Part shown: piece by piece, positions 32,482 through 45,638 of the stretch
Numbering within the stretch: position 1 is the first letter of the stretch
Layout: each line of letters starts with the position of its first letter
From: Planctomycetota bacterium
GTDB taxonomy: Bacteria > Planctomycetota > UBA8108 > SXIK01
Direction of reading: 5' to 3'
Length of the DNA stretch: 64,000 nucleotides
Assembly: GCA_965223265.1 (NCBI GenBank)
Contig: OZ244999.1
Span: 1,952,001 to 2,016,000 of the forward strand
Notes under the pieces: model-generated
Database searches by the model: none
The model's input: the letters and a program-made list of their open reading frames with translations, nothing else
Told to the model about the DNA's origin: nothing
Made by a program: the position numbers and the translations under genes

Positions 32482-32518
32482 CCACGAACTCGGTGTCACC
32501 GTCGATGTGGGGGTGGGC

Positions 32519-32890
32519 GAGTGCGAAAGTAGCAGGCACACTCCGTGTGCCGTCCGGTCTTGTATAGCGTGTGCGAGTGCGAGTGCGAAAGTAGCAGGCA
32601 CACTCCGTGTGCCGTCCGGTCTTGTATAGCGTGTGCGAGTGCGAGTGCGAAAGTAGCAGGCACACTCCGTGTGCCGTCCGGTCTTGTATAGCGTGTGCGA
32701 GTGCGAGTGCGAAAGTAGCAGGCACACTCCGTGTGCCGTCCGGTCTTGTATAGCGTGTGCGAGTGCGTGTGCGAAAGTAGCAGGCACACTCCGTGTGCCG
32801 TCCGGTCTTGTATAGCGTGTGCGAGTGCGAGTGCGAAAGTAGCAGGCACACTCCGTGTGCCGTCCGGTCTTGTATAGCGTGTGCGAGTGC
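32519..32890 (+). repeat. Tandem array of six 62-bp units, each with a GTAG-type REP hairpin
   Basis: GTAG at 32529, 32591, 32653, 32715, 32777 and 32839. Each is followed by CA-GGCACAC-TCC-GTGTGCC-GTCC. No variable spacers. Confidence 0.95.
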
Positions 32891-33317
32891 GTGTGCGTGG
32901 GAGTGGGGAGTACTCCGCTTCTGACTCTGTATCCGTATGTACCTCTCTCTCTGTGTCCGTCTCTGTCCCCATTGTTGCAAAAGAGAAGCACTTTTAGGTC
33001 GTGCGCGTCTGCGTGGCCCGTGGGCTTGACCGTGGGCGTTCTGTCTCTGACTCCGTCTCCGTCTCTGCCTCTGACTCCGTCTCCGTCTCCGTCTCTGTCT
33101 GACTCTGATCGGCGTGTGCCAGACCGGACGACACACGGCACTGCCTGCTCCGTTGGACGGTCTTCCTTCGTTGACCTGGTTTCCTTTCGTTCAACTCTTG
33201 TTCTGATCTCTTGAATCTCGAACAGAAGCAAACGAAGATGAGGCAGAGAAGCGCCAGGCGCTTGAGGATCCACGCCCACGGGAACGGGAACGGCCGTCGC
33301 GCACGCCGACAGGGCCA

Positions 33318-33343: not shown

Positions 33344-33404
33344 GTTGAAGAGGCGCCCACGCCCACGGTCACGGTCACGGTCCACGGTCCACACGCACGC
33401 GCAC

Positions 33405-33482
33405 GCAAACGCAAACGCAAACGCAAACGCAAACGCAAACGCAAACGCAAACGCAAACGCAAACGCAAACGCAAACGCAAAC
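33405..33482. repeat. (GCAAAC)13 microsatellite
   Basis: Perfect hexamer run, directly counted. Confidence 0.95.
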
Positions 33483-33604
33483 GCGCACGGCCTTGAAGCG
33501 CTTTTCTTTTGCAACAATGGGGTCTGCCTCCGTCTCCGTCTCCGCCTCTTCCGTTCCCCGGAGCGAACTCCTCCCAGCTCGAACGACCGCTCCCGGCTCG
33601 TTTC

Positions 33605-35993: not shown

Positions 35994-37421
35994 ATGCTCA
36001 AGGAAAACTATCCATACTACCTTGGCGGCGAGCCGGTTTACGCCAACGAAGAACTCGAGGTGAGGGACAAATACAGCGGCACGCTGGCGACGCGTGTGGC
36101 GCTGGCCGACGACAGCGCGATTGACAGGGCCATCGGTCGAGCTGTCGCCGCAACCGAGGCGTGTGCGCGTCTGCGGGCACATCAGCGCCAGGCAGTCCTC
36201 GAGCATTGCGTGCGACGCTTCCAGGAACGGTTCGAGGAGCTGGCGGTCACGCTCTGCGTGGAGGCTGGCAAGCCCATCAAGGACAGTCGTGGTGAGGTCA
36301 GTCGCCTGATCGACACGTTTAAGATTGCGGCCGAGGAGGCGGTGCGGCTCAACGGCGAAGTCCTGGCGCTCGATCGGACGCCGCGCACGCAGAACTACTC
36401 GGGCATGTGGAAACGCGTTCCGGTCGGGCCGTGCTCTTTCATCTCGCCGTTTAACTTCCCGCTCAATTTGGCGGCTCACAAGGTTGCGCCGGCCCTGGCC
36501 GTTGGTTGTCCGTTCGTCCTGAAGCCTGCGAGCCTCACTCCTCTCGGTGCGCTGATCATCGGCGAGGTGCTGGCGGAGACTGATCTTCCCGACGGGGCGT
36601 TTTCCATTTTGCCCTGCCGTCGCGACGGCGCTCGCCTGTTCACGGAGGATGACCGTTTTAAGTTGCTGAGCTTCACGGGTTCGCCGACTGTCGGTTGGGA
36701 TTTGAAGGCGCGCGCCGGAAAGAAAAAAGTCGTCCTTGAGCTCGGGGGCAACGCTGCCTGCATCGTCGATGCAGACGCCGACCTTGACGACGCAGTAGAG
36801 CGGATTGTGTTTGGGGCCTTCTATCAATCTGGCCAAAGCTGCATCGGTGTGCAGCGTATTCTGATCCACGATGCGGTGTACGACCGATTGAAGACCAAGC
36901 TTGTAGCTGCGACGCAAGCGCTCAAGATGGGTGATCCCAAGGATCCGGAGACGTTCATTGGTCCACTGATTTCCGAGCGTGAGGCTGTCCGCCTCGAGAA
37001 TTGGATTCAAGCCTCCGTCGCGGCCGGCGGAGAACTCTTGTGCGGTGGCCACCGTGACGGCGCTATGCTCGAAGCGTCGCTTCTCGAAAGCGTGCCCAGC
37101 GACCAAGATCTCTGTACCAAAGAGGCCTTCGGTCCGGTCGCAGTTTTGTCGCGGTTTTCGGACTTCGACGCCGCACTCGACGAAGTGAACGATAGCGTCT
37201 TCGGGCTCCAAGCAGGCATCTTCACGCGCGACCTGTATCGTGCGCAGCGGGCTTGGGATCGCCTTGAGGTTGGCGGCGTCGTCATTGGCGACGTTCCATC
37301 TTGGCGTGCCGATGCGATGCCGTACGGTGGCGTCAAGGAAAGCGGTCTCGGGCGCGAAGGTATCCGCTGGGCGATCGAGGACATGACGGAAGTGCGCCTC
37401 TTGGTGATTCGGACGCCGTGA
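35994..37421 (+). CDS. Aldehyde dehydrogenase family protein
   Basis: SPFNFPLNL, LKPAS, FTGS, LELGGN, GQSC, EAFGP, PYGGVKESGLGREG. Confidence 0.96.
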   Translation: MLKENYPYYLGGEPVYANEELEVRDKYSGTLATRVALADDSAIDRAIGRAVAATEACARLRAHQRQAVLEHCVRRFQERFEELAVTLCVEAGKPIKDSRGEVSRLIDTFKIAAEEAVRLNGEVLALDRTPRTQNYSGMWKRVPVGPCSFISPFNFPLNLAAHKVAPALAVGCPFVLKPASLTPLGALIIGEVLAETDLPDGAFSILPCRRDGARLFTEDDRFKLLSFTGSPTVGWDLKARAGKKKVVLELGGNAACIVDADADLDDAVERIVFGAFYQSGQSCIGVQRILIHDAVYDRLKTKLVAATQALKMGDPKDPETFIGPLISEREAVRLENWIQASVAAGGELLCGGHRDGAMLEASLLESVPSDQDLCTKEAFGPVAVLSRFSDFDAALDEVNDSVFGLQAGIFTRDLYRAQRAWDRLEVGGVVIGDVPSWRADAMPYGGVKESGLGREGIRWAIEDMTEVRLLVIRTP

Positions 37422-38407
37422 GTGTGTTTGGCATGACAGCGACTTCTCCGTGTTTCGGCATCCCGGGTCGCAGCTGTCGTCGCCGCAAGTCGCTTGCGGT
37501 TCTGGTGGCGCTAGCGATCACCGTCGCTCGAACCGACGCGATGCATGGACAGGAAGGCGGAATCGAGGTTTTCGCCGCGGAGACGCTTTTCGGGCAAGGG
37601 TGGAGACTTTCGGCCAGCCATCTTTACAAACGCAAGGGCAACGTCTTTCGGGGAGACCGGCACCAAAACGACCCTCTGGATCGCCTCTTCGAGGAGCAGC
37701 GCTTCGTTGCTGGCGTCGACTATGGCGTGCTCCCGGCGTTGACCCTTTCCTTGCTCGTCCCCACTGTCTACAAGTCACAGCGGCAACGGGTGAGCGGTGG
37801 TGGGCGAGAGCGTCTGGAATCTTTCGGCCTCGGCGACGTGGCGCTCTTGGGGAAGTATCGCGTGTTCAAGCGCGACTGGGAGCGTGGCGCGTTCCACCTG
37901 GCGGTTATCTCGGGGCTGGAGTTCCCCTCCGGCGACACTGACGCCGACGAGGATGGCGTCCGCTTGCCACCAGCGCTGCAGCCAGGTCTTGGGGCATGGA
38001 ACCCGGTGACGGCGCTTGCAGCGAACCTCGAGCTGGACCTTTTCCGCTTCGATGGCCTCTTCTTTTACAAGATCAACACTGAAGGAGCGCAGGACTTCGA
38101 AGCCGGCGACTTCATTGTTGTCGAGTTTGATGCCCACTATCGCTTCTTGCACACTCAGTACCCCGGGCCGACCGCAAGTGCCAAACTCGGCGTGCAGTGG
38201 CGTCACGAAATGCGCGACGAGTTGGATGGGCATCGCGTTCGTAACTCCGGTGCGGACGTCATCGCTCTGCGTCCGGGCGTGTCGTGGCATCCTTTGCCGC
38301 AAATCGACATCAGTGTCACACTGGACGTTCCGATCTATCGCTATGTCAGAGGCGAACAACTGGTGTTGGACGTGCGGACGTTCTTTGCAGTAGGCTTGCG
38401 ATTTTGA
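37418..38407 (+). CDS. Outer-membrane beta-barrel, 'transporter'/MetA-phenol-degradation-like family
   Basis: GTG overlaps the ALDH stop (alternative ATG 37433); signal peptide; GLGDVALLGKYR, GLEFPSG, QPGLG motifs; amphipathic strands; terminal Phe (VGLRF). Confidence 0.8.
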   Translation: MSVFGMTATSPCFGIPGRSCRRRKSLAVLVALAITVARTDAMHGQEGGIEVFAAETLFGQGWRLSASHLYKRKGNVFRGDRHQNDPLDRLFEEQRFVAGVDYGVLPALTLSLLVPTVYKSQRQRVSGGGRERLESFGLGDVALLGKYRVFKRDWERGAFHLAVISGLEFPSGDTDADEDGVRLPPALQPGLGAWNPVTALAANLELDLFRFDGLFFYKINTEGAQDFEAGDFIVVEFDAHYRFLHTQYPGPTASAKLGVQWRHEMRDELDGHRVRNSGADVIALRPGVSWHPLPQIDISVTLDVPIYRYVRGEQLVLDVRTFFAVGLRF

Positions 38408-38466
38408 GATCTTTGTAAGGTCTGAACGTTGCGCCGTCTATCGAAGGAACCACTCGAGGAGAGAGT

Positions 38467-39027
38467 ATGCTGAAAAGACGCGCAAGTGCCGCGGTTTGGG
38501 CAGCGGTCTATGTTTCCAGCCTCGTTGGCTGCATGACGGCATCCAATGAATTGCCGCCTGGTGTGCGTCCGTTTGCTGAGGTGACGCTTCTCTTCGAGAG
38601 CTGAATCTGAAACGACAAGGCCTTCGGTTTGGAGAAGGCCTTGCGGCGCCAGGCTGGTGCCGACACCGTGACGCTCGACACCCGCAAGGGGACTGCGACT
38701 TTTACGTACAACACGCCGCGCCAGATTGACTTTGGTTCGATTCAGCGCGCGGCTCACACGGCCGCCTACACGATCAAAAGGCTTGAGCTAAGTGTGCTCG
38801 GCCAGTTGACGAGCGCGGCGTGTGCTGCCTGTCAAAAGGATGTGCCGCACTTGAAGGTCGATCAGACGGGGCAACTCCTGGAAATCCGAGGCGACCTCAG
38901 TGGGGTTGCCACCGGCACCCGCGCCCGACTGCTCGGCCGCACCGGGAAATGGGGCCGCGACCGTTTTGGCGCGCTCAGACCGCGGCCACACGTTGTTCTC
39001 GACGTTGTAACCTTGACGGCGGAGTGA
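38467..39027 (+). CDS. Putative selenoprotein: lipoprotein with HMA/MerP-like domain and U-x-U motif (186 aa)
   Basis: GAGGAG RBS; ATG 38467 is in frame with ORF 38629-39027; lipobox LVGC; VTLLFES-TGA(38602)-I-TGA(38608)-NDKAFGLEKALRRQAGADTVTLD; hairpin immediately downstream. Confidence 0.7.
38616..38643 (+). promoter_or_regulatory. Candidate bacterial SECIS element
   Basis: Perfect 10-bp stem CAAGGCCTTC/GAAGGCCTTG, loop GGTTTGGA starting with G, 21 and 15 nt after the two TGA codons. Confidence 0.65.
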
Positions 39028-39129
39028 GGGCGGGCGCCAGGCGGTCGGCGCCTTTGCAGCAGCGAGAGAAGCGGCTCCGCTTCGCCTTTCCATACGGGCG
39101 TTCGCGCATCAGTCCCTTCGTGGTGCGAT

Positions 39130-39591
39130 CTATCGATGCGCTTTGTGACAACCGCGACACGACCGGCCGATCGCTGAGAGCGCCGACTTCGCTGCGGAGT
39201 GCTTGTTAGCGGTCGTCGCGGCCGCAAGCTTCTTGGTATCGGCGGCGTACTCCCGAACGTACTTCGACCAAGAGCCGCTGCTACCTTTCGCCGGCTGCGT
39301 GCGTGCCAGGGCCGTCGAGAGGTGGGCGACAACTGCAGCCTTGGCTCGCACTGCCGCCCACGACTTGTCGTCAGCAGGGCTCTTTGCCAGATCCTTCTTG
39401 AGCTGTTGGACAAGCCCGCCCTTGCCGTTGACCACGATCATAATGTCAGTCGCGGTCAGCGCGCCGCCGCGCTTTCCCTGAGCATCGAGGCTCGGAATCG
39501 TTGTGGATACTCGCCGCGGCGCGACGAGCGCCGCAGCGCTCAGCCCTACTGCAGTAGCTAAGATCCATAGCGCACAGCGACGAGGTGTCAT
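39130..39591 (-). CDS. Periplasmic class II (cytochrome c'-like) c-type cytochrome
   Basis: AAGGAG RBS, signal peptide, helical body, C-terminal SCRGCHKAHR. Confidence 0.85.
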   Translation of the reverse strand: MTPRRCALWILATAVGLSAAALVAPRRVSTTIPSLDAQGKRGGALTATDIMIVVNGKGGLVQQLKKDLAKSPADDKSWAAVRAKAAVVAHLSTALARTQPAKGSSGSWSKYVREYAADTKKLAAATTANKHSAAKSALSAIGRSCRGCHKAHR

Positions 39592-39615
39592 GTCGAGCTC
39601 TCCTTTTTCTTGGCG

Positions 39616-41061
39616 TCAGTCACCCTGCTTCGCAGCGCGATCGTTCTTGATCAGCCGCTCGACCGCCTGGTTGAGCTTTTCCGGGGAGAATCCCACGTGA
39701 TGGCGCACGACGCGCCCGCTGCGATCGACGAAGAAGTTGGTCGGGTAGAGAAGGACGCCGTATGTGTTGTCCGCGATCGCACCTCCCATAAGAAGAACTT
39801 TCTGCTTCAGTTTCATCTCGCTGACGAACTTGGCGATGGTTGGGCCAGGTTCGTCCCAACCGTTCACGGCGACAATCACAAGACCTTGGTCACGATACTT
39901 CTCTTGCAGTTTGCTGAGGTAGGGAGCCTCCCTACGACAGGGTCCTCACCCGTAGCCCCAAAAACTCAAGATGGCTGGTTTGTCTTTGGTCAACTCCTTG
40001 AAGCTGACTTCCTTGCCGTCGAGGTCCTTGAGCTTGAAGTCGGGAGCTTGCCGGCCAAGTACTTTAGCGAGCATCTTGCCGGCTTCGGTCGCCTCGAAGA
40101 AGGAGTGGAACGCTTCGAGACGCAGCTCGAGCACGTCAGACAGGATCGCCACCGGCGTCGCCTTCGCCTTGGCTGCGAAGGCGGTGACCGCTGCCTTGAT
40201 TTCCGCGGACGGTGGGCGTTTGTCGAACACTGCTAGGGTGTTATCGAATGCATCGACCACCGAACTCCACGATGGTTTGGTGGCGCCTTTGAGTGCACCG
40301 CCTGTGTCGCGTTTGAGCTCGATCGTTTGCGCCAGGACGATCGTTTGATCGTCGACGGTAACGTCCACGGCGAGCGAGCGCTTAAACGACTCAACCTCAC
40401 CAGTCTCGGGATGCAGTTCGTAGCGGGCGCTGTAACTTTTTAGTTTCGACGGATTCTCCTGCAGCTCGAACTTGCGCGCTTCGCCGTCGCCGTTACCGGC
40501 GTTGAGAGCCCGTTCGATCACACGGCCGCTGGAATCGACGGTCGTAACGAAGGGAAGCTTCAGCGTCGCTGCGTTGAGGACGTTCAGCTCTGCATCGCTC
40601 TCAAGCTGCATGCCCTTCGCGGGCACCTGGAACGCCGGCAAGAGCTCGATGGGAAAGAAGATGTTGAGACCATGTGTCTCCTCACCGAGCTCGTGCGCCA
40701 CCGGGCTCGAATCGTCGGGGGACAGCGAATAGCCGCCCGGCGATGTCTGGAGGCCGAAGTATTCAGTCGTGGCGTACTTTGTGCCCGCCTCATCATCGAT
40801 CAGGCGCGTGATTCGCACTGACGTCGGGGATCGCCCTTCAATCATGACGTGGGCGGCGTAGGGAGAAGACGATGTCTCGTCTCCGATCGTTTGCGACAAC
40901 ACGGTCTTGCCGGAATAAATGGCGACCATTCCAGGCGCGGGGGTGCCAGCGCCTGGTTCGCCCCAGATCGCATCCGGGCACGCGCCGAGAACGACGGCGA
41001 GCAGTCCAAGCCGGCTGAATGCGAGCCAGCGTCCGCCGCGGTGCAAGCAAAGAGGATTCAT
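39616..41061 (-). CDS. Putative selenoprotein: exported TlpA/ResA-like thioredoxin-fold protein, UGPC active site (481 aa)
   Basis: ORFs 39946-41061 and 39616-39879 share one frame. Read-through gives APDFKLKDLDGKEVS...ILSFWGYG-U-GPCRREAPYLSKLQEKYRDQGLVIVAVN...YPTNFFVDRSGRVV. Confidence 0.9.
39919..39935 (-). promoter_or_regulatory. Candidate bacterial SECIS element
   Basis: Minus strand GTAGGGA-GGC-TCCCTAC; G-starting loop 17 nt after the TGA at 39948-39946. Confidence 0.65.
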
Positions 41062-41332
41062 AAGCGCTCCAAGTTAAGTGGACATGAGCCGGCGAAGAAA
41101 CGCGAACGCGCAGCCTGTCCCGGGCTCATCGCAAGCGTTTGACTCTGGTGACGGGATAGCGTAGTCACTCTCACTACGGCAGGGGACGGGTGGCCGCGAG
41201 CGGCACGCCGTGCGCCCATCGGCGCCAAGAAGACCGGCCACCCAGTCTACCAAGCGAACGCGCATGGCGGTAGGATCGTTCCCTTCGGATCCTCGCTCGG
41301 CGGCGAGGACTCACCGAGCCGCCGAGCCATGC

Positions 41333-41373
41333 CACATTGGAGGTGGCACATTGGAGGTGGCACATTGGAGGTG
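41333..41373 (+). repeat. 14-bp tandem repeat x3, each containing a Shine-Dalgarno sequence
   Basis: CACATTGGAGGTG(G) three times, ending 7 nt before ATG 41381. Confidence 0.9.
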
Positions 41374-41380
41374 ACGCGGT

Positions 41381-42157
41381 ATGAAACGAGATACGGCAGC
41401 CGACCTCGTCGGCAAAGTGGCGCTGATCACCGGGGGCAGCCGCGGCATCGGGTTCGCGATCGCTAAGGGTTTCCTGGAGCGAGGCGCGCAGGTCGTGATC
41501 ACCTCGCGAAGCCACAACGGCATCCAGGCGGCGGTCACTAAGCTGAAGGATGTCGGCTTGACTCAAGTCGAAGGCGCCGTCGCGCACAGTGCCAATCCCG
41601 AGGCAGTCCAGCAGGCGTTTCAGGCGGCTGCATCGGCCTTTGGTCCGGTGCAGATCGTCGTCAACAACGCGGCGACCAATCCGATCATGAAGCCACTTGC
41701 CGACACGGAGCTCGAGGTTTTCGACAAGATCATTCAGACCAATCTGCGTGGTTATTTGGTGGTCTCTCAAGAGGCTGTCAAGCGTCTACGTGCAGCTCGC
41801 CTCGGTGGCTCCATCATTAACGTCTCCACCGTTGCGTCGATGCGTAGCTGGCCGGGTCTCGGCGCTTACAGCGTGAGCAAAGCCGCGGTGAACATGATGA
41901 CGCAGGTCCTCGCTGGCGAACTCGGGCCCGAGTCGATTCGGGTCAACGGCATTGCCCCTGGTCTCGTGCGGACGCGGTTCAGCGAGGCGCTTTGGGGCGA
42001 CTCCGAGGCGGAGGAGCGCGTGAAGCGAAAACTGCCGCTCAGGCGCATCGCCGAGGTGGAGGACATCGTCGGCGCCGCGATCTTTCTAGCTTCCGACGCG
42101 TCGTCCTACGTCACGGGTCAGACTCTTGTCGTTGACGGTGGAATGCTCGCGACCTAA
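41381..42157 (+). CDS. Short-chain dehydrogenase/reductase (classical SDR)
   Basis: TGGSRGIG, VNNAA, YSVSK, IRVNGIAPG, YVTGQTLVVDGG. Confidence 0.96.
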   Translation: MKRDTAADLVGKVALITGGSRGIGFAIAKGFLERGAQVVITSRSHNGIQAAVTKLKDVGLTQVEGAVAHSANPEAVQQAFQAAASAFGPVQIVVNNAATNPIMKPLADTELEVFDKIIQTNLRGYLVVSQEAVKRLRAARLGGSIINVSTVASMRSWPGLGAYSVSKAAVNMMTQVLAGELGPESIRVNGIAPGLVRTRFSEALWGDSEAEERVKRKLPLRRIAEVEDIVGAAIFLASDASSYVTGQTLVVDGGMLAT

Positions 42158-45448: not shown

Positions 45449-45517
45449 ACGCCACGACACGCCACGACACGCCGCGACACGCCACGACACGCCGCGACAC
45501 GCCGCGACACGCCGCGA
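45449..45517. repeat. 10-bp tandem repeat (GCCRCGACAC) x6+
   Basis: Directly visible just after the hydrolase stop codon. Confidence 0.9.
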
Positions 45518-45638
45518 TCACGGTGCCGCATCGCACGGCGCCTCTTTACGCTGCTGCGGAGCCGGGCTATAACGGTTGTTTCGATTTGTTGACAACCTAG
45601 CGCCTTTGCACCGTGGTCTTTTCAAGGAGCGTCTAACG

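Follow-up and report, generated by a model that had tools for sequence, protein, structure and literature searches.

Two pairs of genes for exported proteins, each pair including one gene with in-frame TGA, lie tail to tail in a planctomycete chromosome, and the question raised by this locus is whether the four genes make up one system or two, and what they do. The stretch examined is a window of 64,000 nucleotides (the whole of the DNA analysed, to which all positions below refer unless a locus handle is given) from Planctomycetota bacterium (GTDB lineage Bacteria; Planctomycetota; UBA8108; SXIK01), assembly GCA_965223265.1, contig OZ244999.1, positions 1,952,001 to 2,016,000 of the forward strand; the locus occupies 37418..41061. 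A first-pass annotation had described there four exported proteins in two convergent pairs, with in-frame TGAs and hairpins, and had joined all four in a single envelope metal and redox system. The genes, the codons and the hairpins were all found where it had placed them, a pattern well beyond chance, and they are better read, with a probability of about 0.6, as two unrelated selenoprotein loci standing tail to tail: locus A (37418-39027), a metal-capture operon of an outer-membrane beta-barrel gene and a lipoprotein gene with two in-frame TGAs, and locus B (39130-41061), a peroxiredoxin-like (Prx-like) oxidoreductase. Selenocysteine is written Sec, or U in motifs. The features are the following.

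37418..38407, plus strand: outer-membrane beta-barrel gene, 329 aa from the GTG at 37418, with an alternative in-frame ATG at 37433
38467..39027, plus strand: lipoprotein gene, 186 aa, reading through its TGAs; signal peptide, domain with predicted heavy-metal-associated (HMA) fold, and C-terminal beta domain, possibly OB-like
38521..38532, plus strand: lipobox L-V-G-C with Cys22, 24 residues ahead of the first Sec; Cys22 is invariant in alignment A1
38602..38604, plus strand: UGA 1, putative Sec46 of the lipoprotein; TGA in every close homologue
38608..38610, plus strand: UGA 2, putative Sec48 of the lipoprotein; TGA in every close homologue
38616..38643, plus strand: hairpin 1, candidate selenocysteine insertion sequence (SECIS), with a 9-10 bp stem and an 8-nt loop GGnnnnGn, beginning 11 nt past UGA 1 (RNAfold)
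38645..38661, plus strand: hairpin 2, with a 7 bp stem and a 3-nt loop (GGY/GTK), 34 nt past UGA 2
38821..38832, plus strand: C119-A-A-C122 in a loop of the C-terminal domain of the lipoprotein, a possible second thiol site
39130..39591, minus strand: cytochrome c'-like gene, 153 aa, with signal peptide and C-terminal CRGCH
39616..41061, minus strand: gene for a Sec thioredoxin-fold (TlpA-like) protein, 481 aa, with an N-terminal region of about 330 aa and then an AhpC/TSA-Redoxin domain with U372-G-P-C
39946..39948, minus strand: UGA, putative Sec372 of the TlpA-like protein, in the context FWGYG-U-GPC
39919..39935, minus strand: putative SECIS hairpin of the TlpA-like gene, 7 bp with a GGC loop, 10 nt past the UGA
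41381..42157, plus strand: short-chain dehydrogenase (SDR) gene, divergent from the TlpA-like gene and its recurring neighbour

Both UGAs of the lipoprotein gene are probably read as Sec, as the decoding genes and the conservation of the codons suggest. The source genome, a single 9.18-Mb contig, encodes a tRNA-Sec (70.3 bits against a gathering threshold of 47; anticodon TCA by ARAGORN) together with selB (324 bits), selA (548 bits) and selD (309 bits), all above their cut-offs. An altered genetic code was ruled out, since the lipoprotein and TlpA-like genes both end at a genuine TGA stop and the code is therefore standard. The lipoprotein translation around the codons runs ...LLFES-U-I-U-NDKAFGLEKAL..., and when 61 related genomes were searched in six frames with the read-through protein, 16 matches came out, all with two in-frame TGAs. 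One of them (G003, E 2.7e-5) was dropped, being without the U-I-U motif; the 15 true homologues all read S/T-U-I-U-N-D-[KAL]-A-F-G with both TGAs in frame. A degenerate DNA pattern run over 185,579 species genomes returned 34 matches, comprising 31 true family members, every one with both TGAs in frame, and three chance matches that were rejected (in Coprococcus, Bacteroidales and one Planctomycetia contig). This set and that of the related genomes have 14 records in common. Thirty of the 31 members come from records labelled Planctomycetota, Planctomycetes, Planctomycetia, Planctomycetaceae or 'uncultured bacterium', and the remaining one from a short contig binned as Glaciecola. An even sample of 401 Planctomycetota genomes held 16 strong matches (E ≤ 5e-33) from nine families, all with two TGAs, and six weaker ones that were other variants. 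On co-occurrence with sel genes, a check proposed in the first-pass annotation, selA is present in all 16 strong carriers, against 290 of the 401 genomes overall.

Two side observations concern Sec use itself. selA was detected at E ≤ 1e-40 in those 290 Planctomycetota genomes (285 above the family cut-off), and Sec use seems to be the rule in the phylum. In addition, selD (C1:3460049-3461653; L019, L188) lies inside a 790-aa open frame whose N-terminal part matches pyridine-nucleotide disulfide oxidoreductases, and which looks like a fused oxidoreductase-SelD.

Database entries of the lipoprotein family are nearly always truncated. Of 1.84 billion protein representatives searched with a profile, 295 matched at E ≤ 0.001, 116 of them at E ≤ 1e-10. 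Among the 150 listed of these 295, 136 start at residue 1-4 of their own sequence and no earlier than profile position 51, the pattern expected of gene callers that stop at the TGAs. A word-indexed protein search with the read-through lipoprotein matched solely the window's own truncated fragment. Since nearly all members are truncated in this way, the family is invisible in protein databases. The strand ahead of the TGAs (residues 37-43) belongs to the predicted fold, and a full-length relative (P0113) carries C-N-C-K-D-C at the site.

The lipoprotein gene has, downstream of its UGAs, two stem-loops with a G opening the loop, and both are conserved in 30 of 30 distinct aligned sequences. Over both hairpins, 90.8% of cells pair. 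The covariation score, 0.213, was reached by 0 of 500 shuffled alignments, which gave 0.161; with the partner slid by 1-3 columns as a control, 31-47% of cells were paired. Hairpin 1 has 87% of cells paired across the 30 sequences, with three pairs changing on both sides. For hairpin 2 the figure is 96.2%, and four of its seven pairs change on both sides (GC to AU), exchanges in which the second or third base of one codon is paired with the synonymous third base of another. Three loop positions never vary: G25 and G26 in hairpin 1, and G51 in hairpin 2. The 66-nt stretch that holds them has a mean folding z of -3.17 in the Sec forms, with 26 of 30 below -2, against -0.80 in the cysteine-bearing (Cys-type) relatives described below, with 18 of 76 below -2. 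Rfam gave no match at E ≤ 1 in positions 37000-41500. The distance of hairpin 1 from UGA 1 is that of an ordinary SECIS, and hairpin 2 is built like the hairpin of the TlpA-like gene (7 bp, three-base loop), whose stem carries compensatory changes of its own among 20 sequences (GTAGGGA/TCCCTAC, GTAAGGA/TCCTTAC and GTGCGGA/TCCGCAC). The tandem hairpins would take part in reading both UGAs as Sec; one hairpin may serve each UGA, and this assignment is tentative.

Do the two convergent pairs belong together? The TlpA-like protein of locus B matches AhpC/TSA (PF00578) at 74.2 bits (cut-off 26) and Redoxin (PF08534) at 72 bits (cut-off 26.6), and its N-terminal region of about 330 aa gave no Pfam match. 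Against NCBIfam it stays below the cut-offs of ResA (92.3/170), TlpA (33.5/230), DsbE (43.8/123) and the WAxxUGC family. Matches at E ≤ 1e-10 were found in 54 of the 61 related genomes, mostly with one TGA. In all 19 orthologous loci examined the TGA is kept, as is the motif FWG-x-x-U-G-x-C-R; 17 have U-G-P-C, and U-G-A-C and U-G-M-C occur once each. Table 1 of PMC13188914 lists a 'Prx-like thiol:disulfide oxidoreductase, PF00578, UxxC', with which the TlpA-like protein has in common the AhpC/TSA domain, the U-x-x-C motif and a SECIS 10 nt past the UGA, and from which it differs by the unmatched N-terminal region. Its sequence thus places it among the known Prx-like UxxC selenoproteins. An SDR homologue stands divergent beside it in 14 of the 19 loci (one a partial match). 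A cytochrome c' homologue does so in one of 19; the gene in the window scores 24.6 bits for PF01322 (cut-off 26.5), with C-R-G-C-H four residues from its C-terminus, and is a local neighbour, not a conserved partner. Locus B would therefore be read as a Prx-like UxxC oxidoreductase with an extra N-terminal region and the divergent SDR gene as its partner. Between the TlpA-like and SDR genes, a 14-nt unit CACATTGGAGGTGG is repeated 2.9 times at 41333-41373 and might be an operator or other regulatory site.

No barrel or lipoprotein homologue was found near the TlpA-like gene in any of these 19 loci, and no TlpA or cytochrome homologue near the barrel and lipoprotein genes in 14 loci from the related genomes or in the 31 DNA-pattern loci. 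In one relative with a multi-megabase contig, the lipoprotein and Sec-TlpA genes are about 4.9 Mb apart. Co-occurrence is uninformative here, because a Sec-TlpA-type match is present almost equally in genomes with the lipoprotein (14 of 15) and without it (40 of 46). The functional link between the pairs, for which the first-pass annotation had itself named want of synteny elsewhere as a ground for refutation, was consequently not sustained: never syntenic in the loci examined, the two loci are neighbours by accident in this genome. The same annotation had seen the barrel gene as coupled to an upstream aldehyde dehydrogenase (ALDH) gene by a GTGA overlap. That overlap exists (37418-37421), but 15 nt further on there is an in-frame ATG, and the coupling is local to this genome. 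ALDH was rejected as a part of the module, with no such gene nearby in the 14 loci and a single ALDH match, about 7 kb away, in the 31.

Within locus A the association is of another kind. In 14 of 14 loci from relatives the gene immediately preceding the lipoprotein gene, in the same orientation, is a barrel homologue. So it is in 30 of the 31 DNA-pattern loci, the remaining locus ending before that place; in the window the two genes are 60 bases apart. The barrel and U-I-U lipoprotein genes are a fixed two-gene operon, and the functional pair that had been proposed for them stands. Clustering of open reading frames (ORFs) over 12 loci revealed nothing else in common beyond close kin. The neighbours in Planctomycetota loci are sulfatases and other common planctomycete genes, and the operon is carried by a minority of the phylum. 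In a scan for promoters and terminators no promoter-like site turned up, and the 3 terminator-like sites fell short of the 6.3 expected; nothing in it was usable.

The barrel protein has a signal peptide, a match to PF13557 (Phenol_MetA_deg, COG4313) at 50.3 bits against a cut-off of 22, and a C-terminal motif GLRF conserved among its homologues. Its AlphaFold2 (AF2) model has a mean pLDDT of 72.5 and 12 or more strands. In Foldseek the best matches were FapF (5o67_B, E 1.6e-10) and the COG4313 channel Pput2725 (4rl8_A, E 6.8e-8, TM-score 0.70). Neither Pput2725 nor FapF is known to work with an HMA partner. The barrel resembles both Pput2725 (4rl8; PMC4493636) and FapF (5o65/5o67; PMC5557850) in its plugged fold, at TM-scores of 0.66-0.73, and differs from them in sequence, its profile matching no PDB chain at E ≤ 1.

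The lipoprotein is the more unusual partner. In every member the signal peptide ends in a Cys that stands 21-28 residues ahead of the first Sec. Of 32 distinct proteins, 27 conform to a strict lipobox pattern; in four more the Cys is at the equivalent position but its surroundings conform less closely, and the last one is truncated at the N-terminal end. The AF2 model (pLDDT 87, from a 14-row alignment, with Cys written for Sec) shows a beta-alpha-beta-beta-alpha-beta domain at residues 37-118, followed by a beta domain. The predicted strands of the first domain are 37-43, 67-71, 76-81 and from 103 onwards, and its helices are 49-63 and 89-98. By VIA-align this domain matches CopZ (6ff2_A) with a Z of 8.6 and a root-mean-square deviation (rmsd) of 2.0 Å over 66 of its 67 residues; PacS, ZntA, MerP, Atx1, GolB and other HMA domains follow. 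The fold call rests on VIA-align, because Foldseek with the whole model gave no row at E ≤ 0.001. Its weaker rows for the remainder of the protein were OB-fold proteins, which can be taken as a hint that the C-terminal beta domain is OB-like.

The lipoprotein profile has no meaningful sequence relative in the PDB. It does have relatives of the Cys type: against seven exported HMA proteins with the motif G-[LM]-[SA]-C-P-F-C, hhalign gave a probability of 99.2 and an E of 1.4e-19 over 155 columns, so that both domains are homologous to those of the Cys-type proteins. Two of the seven match the CopZ and MerP models in an NCBIfam scan, below cut-off. The HMA fold that the first-pass annotation had assigned is thus upheld by comparison of the predicted structure and by profile alignment alike. 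In the latter, U48 is aligned with the first canonical Cys, U46 with the Met/Leu of G-[LM]-x-C, and K51 with the second Cys. In place of the canonical G-M-x-C-x-x-C the lipoprotein has S-U-I-U-N-D-K; as judged from this alignment, the site of the metal loop is rebuilt, not merely substituted, and the second Cys is lost. A C-x-x-C lies 73 residues past the first Sec in 19 of 30 complete lipoproteins and is missing in the other 11, which are one genus-level group and a few others; in the window protein it is C119-A-A-C122, in the modelled loop between strands 103-118 and 125-131.

The scaffold also occurs in other states. Ligand-free forms exist (P0016, P0108, P0132). A U-P-V-U (UxxU) form was noticed in one Planctomycetota genome (L198:515-1060, minus strand, genome G123), with Sec at both canonical Cys positions and 22 bits for NF041115 against a cut-off of 95. 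A further protein, P0097, is a 197-aa lipoprotein whose C-terminal half is common with the family and in which another N-terminal part replaces the Sec-bearing strand and loop.

A metal theme for the module had been proposed in the first-pass annotation, and it finds support in the distant Cys-type relatives, which sit in heavy-metal, mer-like clusters. At least 503 of them were confirmed in species genomes, in Omnitrophota, Acidobacteriota, Nitrospirota, Zetaproteobacteria, Zixibacteria, Planctomycetota and other phyla, and gene context was counted in the best 80 loci of these. A barrel homologue adjoins the Cys-type HMA gene in 67 of the 80. ORF clusters at these loci include an NHL propeller (57/80), a MerR-family regulator (42/80), a MerC-like protein (21/80), a small thioredoxin (13/80) and a pyridine-nucleotide oxidoreductase (8/80). 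A true MerA gene (825 bits against a cut-off of 600) immediately precedes the HMA and barrel genes in one locus. One locus has the order MerR-family, MerC-like, thioredoxin, barrel, HMA and NHL, and another a heavy-metal P-type ATPase upstream. The source names of the Cys-type proteins are 'heavy-metal-associated domain-containing protein' or 'mercuric ion binding protein'. Features of the mer operon (MerR, MerT/MerC/MerP, MerA) are thus found in part, in the distant Cys-type relatives only, and none of these genes is adjacent in the window or in related Planctomycetota loci. A full-text literature search found no description of the Cys-type barrel/HMA/NHL/MerR/MerC cluster. Examples of it among loci L105-L184 are L165:2773-6382 and L166:2949-6205.

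By analogy with these relatives, the module would be tied to soft-metal handling, with mercury as the best-supported candidate. In the mechanism that we propose, locus A would be a self-contained operon of a FapF/COG4313-type channel and an HMA/OB-like lipoprotein, whose two selenolates would hold a soft metal ion within the envelope. Hg(II) would be the most likely ion and Cu(I) the next, because Cys-type relatives of both genes pair inside MerR/MerC/MerA-type clusters. The channel would either admit the metal or place the lipoprotein. A more specific version pictures an obligate double-Sec family in which the U-x-U motif holds a soft metal as a diselenolate, where all characterised HMA proteins have CxxC, with a dedicated channel and one tandem SECIS for each UGA; it is a doubtful elaboration, to be entertained as a possibility.

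Several observations weigh against the metal-capture reading and its details. Pfam HMA (PF00403) scores 18.7 bits on the lipoprotein, below the cut-off of 24.8 (E 0.0023, residues 56-101), so that the HMA assignment rests on the predicted fold and on profile-profile homology. Hairpin 2 sits 34 nt past UGA 2, when the other two hairpins of the window stand 10-11 nt past theirs. The mercury link passes through relatives just 19% identical. Of the two pyridine-nucleotide oxidoreductase representatives that were scored, one is a true MerA and the other is not; the MerR-family regulators fall below the MerR cut-off and score nearly equally as ZntR, CueR and CadR. No MerA stands above cut-off in the source genome (best 387.9 bits against 454.45), and no conserved metal gene was found beside the operon in the Planctomycetota loci. 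The barrel alignment has no conserved Cys, Met or His cluster, H291 being the sole invariant residue of these kinds. Finally, the related genomes in which the TGAs were counted are not independent samples.

Among the other explanations, one takes U-x-U as a redox centre, a diselenide/diselenol pair that would make the lipoprotein an envelope oxidoreductase or a scavenger of peroxides or electrophiles on an HMA scaffold. In its favour, redox proteins make up the majority of prokaryotic selenoproteins (PMC13188914), the second canonical metal ligand has given way to K51, and the second-domain CxxC of 19 of 30 proteins might serve as a resolving pair; the want of flanking metal genes in Planctomycetota agrees with it too. 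The fold and the homologous family are nonetheless metal-binding ones, the Secs stand in the metal loop with one of them at a ligand position, the Cys-type relatives lie in metal-regulated clusters, and 11 of 30 proteins do without the extra CxxC. On this balance a redox centre is considered rather unlikely.

About the same weight can be given to the view that the barrel is not a metal pore but a dedicated device for exporting or anchoring the lipoprotein, in the way FapF serves its amyloid subunit, which would put the selenoprotein at the cell surface. It is in keeping with the strict one-to-one coupling of the genes, with a barrel devoid of conserved thiol or thioether ligands, and with the ranking of FapF polypeptide transporter chains (E 1.6e-10) ahead of COG4313. 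FapF and COG4313 have the same fold, however, so that the ranking does not discriminate; the barrel model is of moderate confidence (pLDDT 72.5) and the Pfam family is PF13557. An exporter role is likewise considered rather unlikely.

Far less can be said for the single four-gene envelope system of the first-pass annotation, in which the barrel would admit a metal, the lipoprotein capture it, and Sec-TlpA with the cytochrome reset its redox state. Four exported products do lie within 3.7 kb, TlpA-type proteins reduce periplasmic thiols, and near the Cys-type relatives a small thioredoxin occurs in 13 of 80 loci and TlpA-like matches in four of 80. Set against these are the complete want of synteny between the pairs (0/14, 0/31, 0/19) and their distance in the relative mentioned above, the Sec-TlpA type in 40 of 46 genomes that have no lipoprotein, and an SDR gene, in place of the cytochrome (1/19), as the recurring neighbour of the TlpA-like gene; one system is accordingly held to be very unlikely. 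Weakest of all, and scarcely credible, is that the lipoprotein TGAs are true stops bounding a short lipopeptide gene and a separate downstream ORF, or a pseudogene: gene callers do annotate the downstream fragment only, but TGAs and frame are kept in all close homologues down to 31% identity to the window's protein (alignment A1), TGA gives way there neither to a sense codon nor to a different stop, the fold is completed by the strand ahead of the codons, covarying hairpins follow and the Sec machinery is present.

Under the two-locus reading, how new is the lipoprotein? To our knowledge, Sec as a metal ligand in transport or chaperone proteins is represented by a few computational families, none characterised and none with this geometry. 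HMA-type selenoproteins are already known as a kind. NF041115, the 'UxxU metal-binding (seleno)protein' of NCBIfam, is like the lipoprotein in its HMA-type fold with two Secs in the metal loop, and NF045683, a 'MerT/CopZ fusion-like heavy metal transport selenoprotein', in its HMA-type fold with Sec in that loop; for the catalogued families a soft-metal ligand role is presumed, as it is here. The available part of the Global Ocean Sampling (GOS) survey lists a 'MerP' selenoprotein, giving no motif (PMC2398784). From the catalogued HMA selenoproteins the lipoprotein is set apart by U-x-U shifted by two residues, in place of U-x-x-U, and by its lipid anchor, second beta domain, coupling to a barrel and two hairpins. 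Against NCBIfam release 20 its best score was 13.7 bits, for NF045683 (cut-off 375), and neither NF041115 nor NF045648 was reported at E ≤ 0.1.

Among proteins with cysteine ligands, MerP and CopZ/Atx1 (PF00403) have the same fold (Z 7.4-8.6, rmsd about 2 Å over 65-72 residues) and their ligands in the loop before helix 1, and MerP is also exported. The lipoprotein departs from them in lying below the Pfam cut-off and lacking GMxCxxC, and in having two Sec, a lipid anchor and an extra domain. The Cys-type proteins are closer, both domains being homologous and the same kind of barrel standing beside them (67/80), and differ in having CxxC and no stable RNA structure after the motif. Their loci usually include NHL propeller, MerR-family and MerC-like genes, none of which flanks the Planctomycetota operon.

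Neither a U-x-U motif nor an HMA lipoprotein appears among the 119 prokaryotic selenoprotein families inventoried in 2026 (PMC13188914, Table 1), where the closest entries are the U-x-x-U 'metal-binding protein' (NF041115), MbdU and a Sec-containing cation ATPase. A U-x-U protein goes unmentioned in the available parts of the preprint by Haft on eight selenoprotein families (10.1101/2022.07.06.499078) and of a 2022 review (PMC9312934). A full-text literature search retrieved no report of a U-x-U HMA selenoprotein, though supplements of selenoproteome papers may list more, and no description was found in the literature of a tandem-SECIS arrangement with UGAs 6 nt apart and a hairpin for each. 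The U-x-U lipoprotein is apparently an undescribed selenoprotein type, and what is new in it is the U-x-U motif and its displacement, the obligate pair of Secs, the lipid anchor with a second domain, the dedicated channel and the tandem hairpins.

Elsewhere in the window, repeats of other kinds were observed. A 62-bp unit is repeated 6.1 times head to tail with 99% identity at 32517-32897, with an inverted repeat in each unit; two hexamer arrays follow at 33043-33100 (GTCTCC-like) and 33403-33484 (ACGCAA, 13.7 copies), and all three arrays sit just downstream of a 750-aa FG-GAP/esterase-like gene. A 10-nt unit ACGCCGCGAC is repeated 7.3 times at 45449-45522, at the 3' end of a 708-aa gene.

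The significance of the family lies in what can be compared within it. One scaffold exists with CxxC, UxxU, UxU, CxCxxC and no ligands, next to the same channel, which amounts to a natural experiment: with scaffold and channel held constant across ligand states, the chemical gain from selenium becomes comparable. The lipoprotein gene is also a compact test case for bacterial decoding of UGAs two codons apart, and for asking if SelB requires a hairpin at each UGA. The widespread Cys-type cluster, for its part, deserves a look as an outer-membrane branch of heavy-metal handling.

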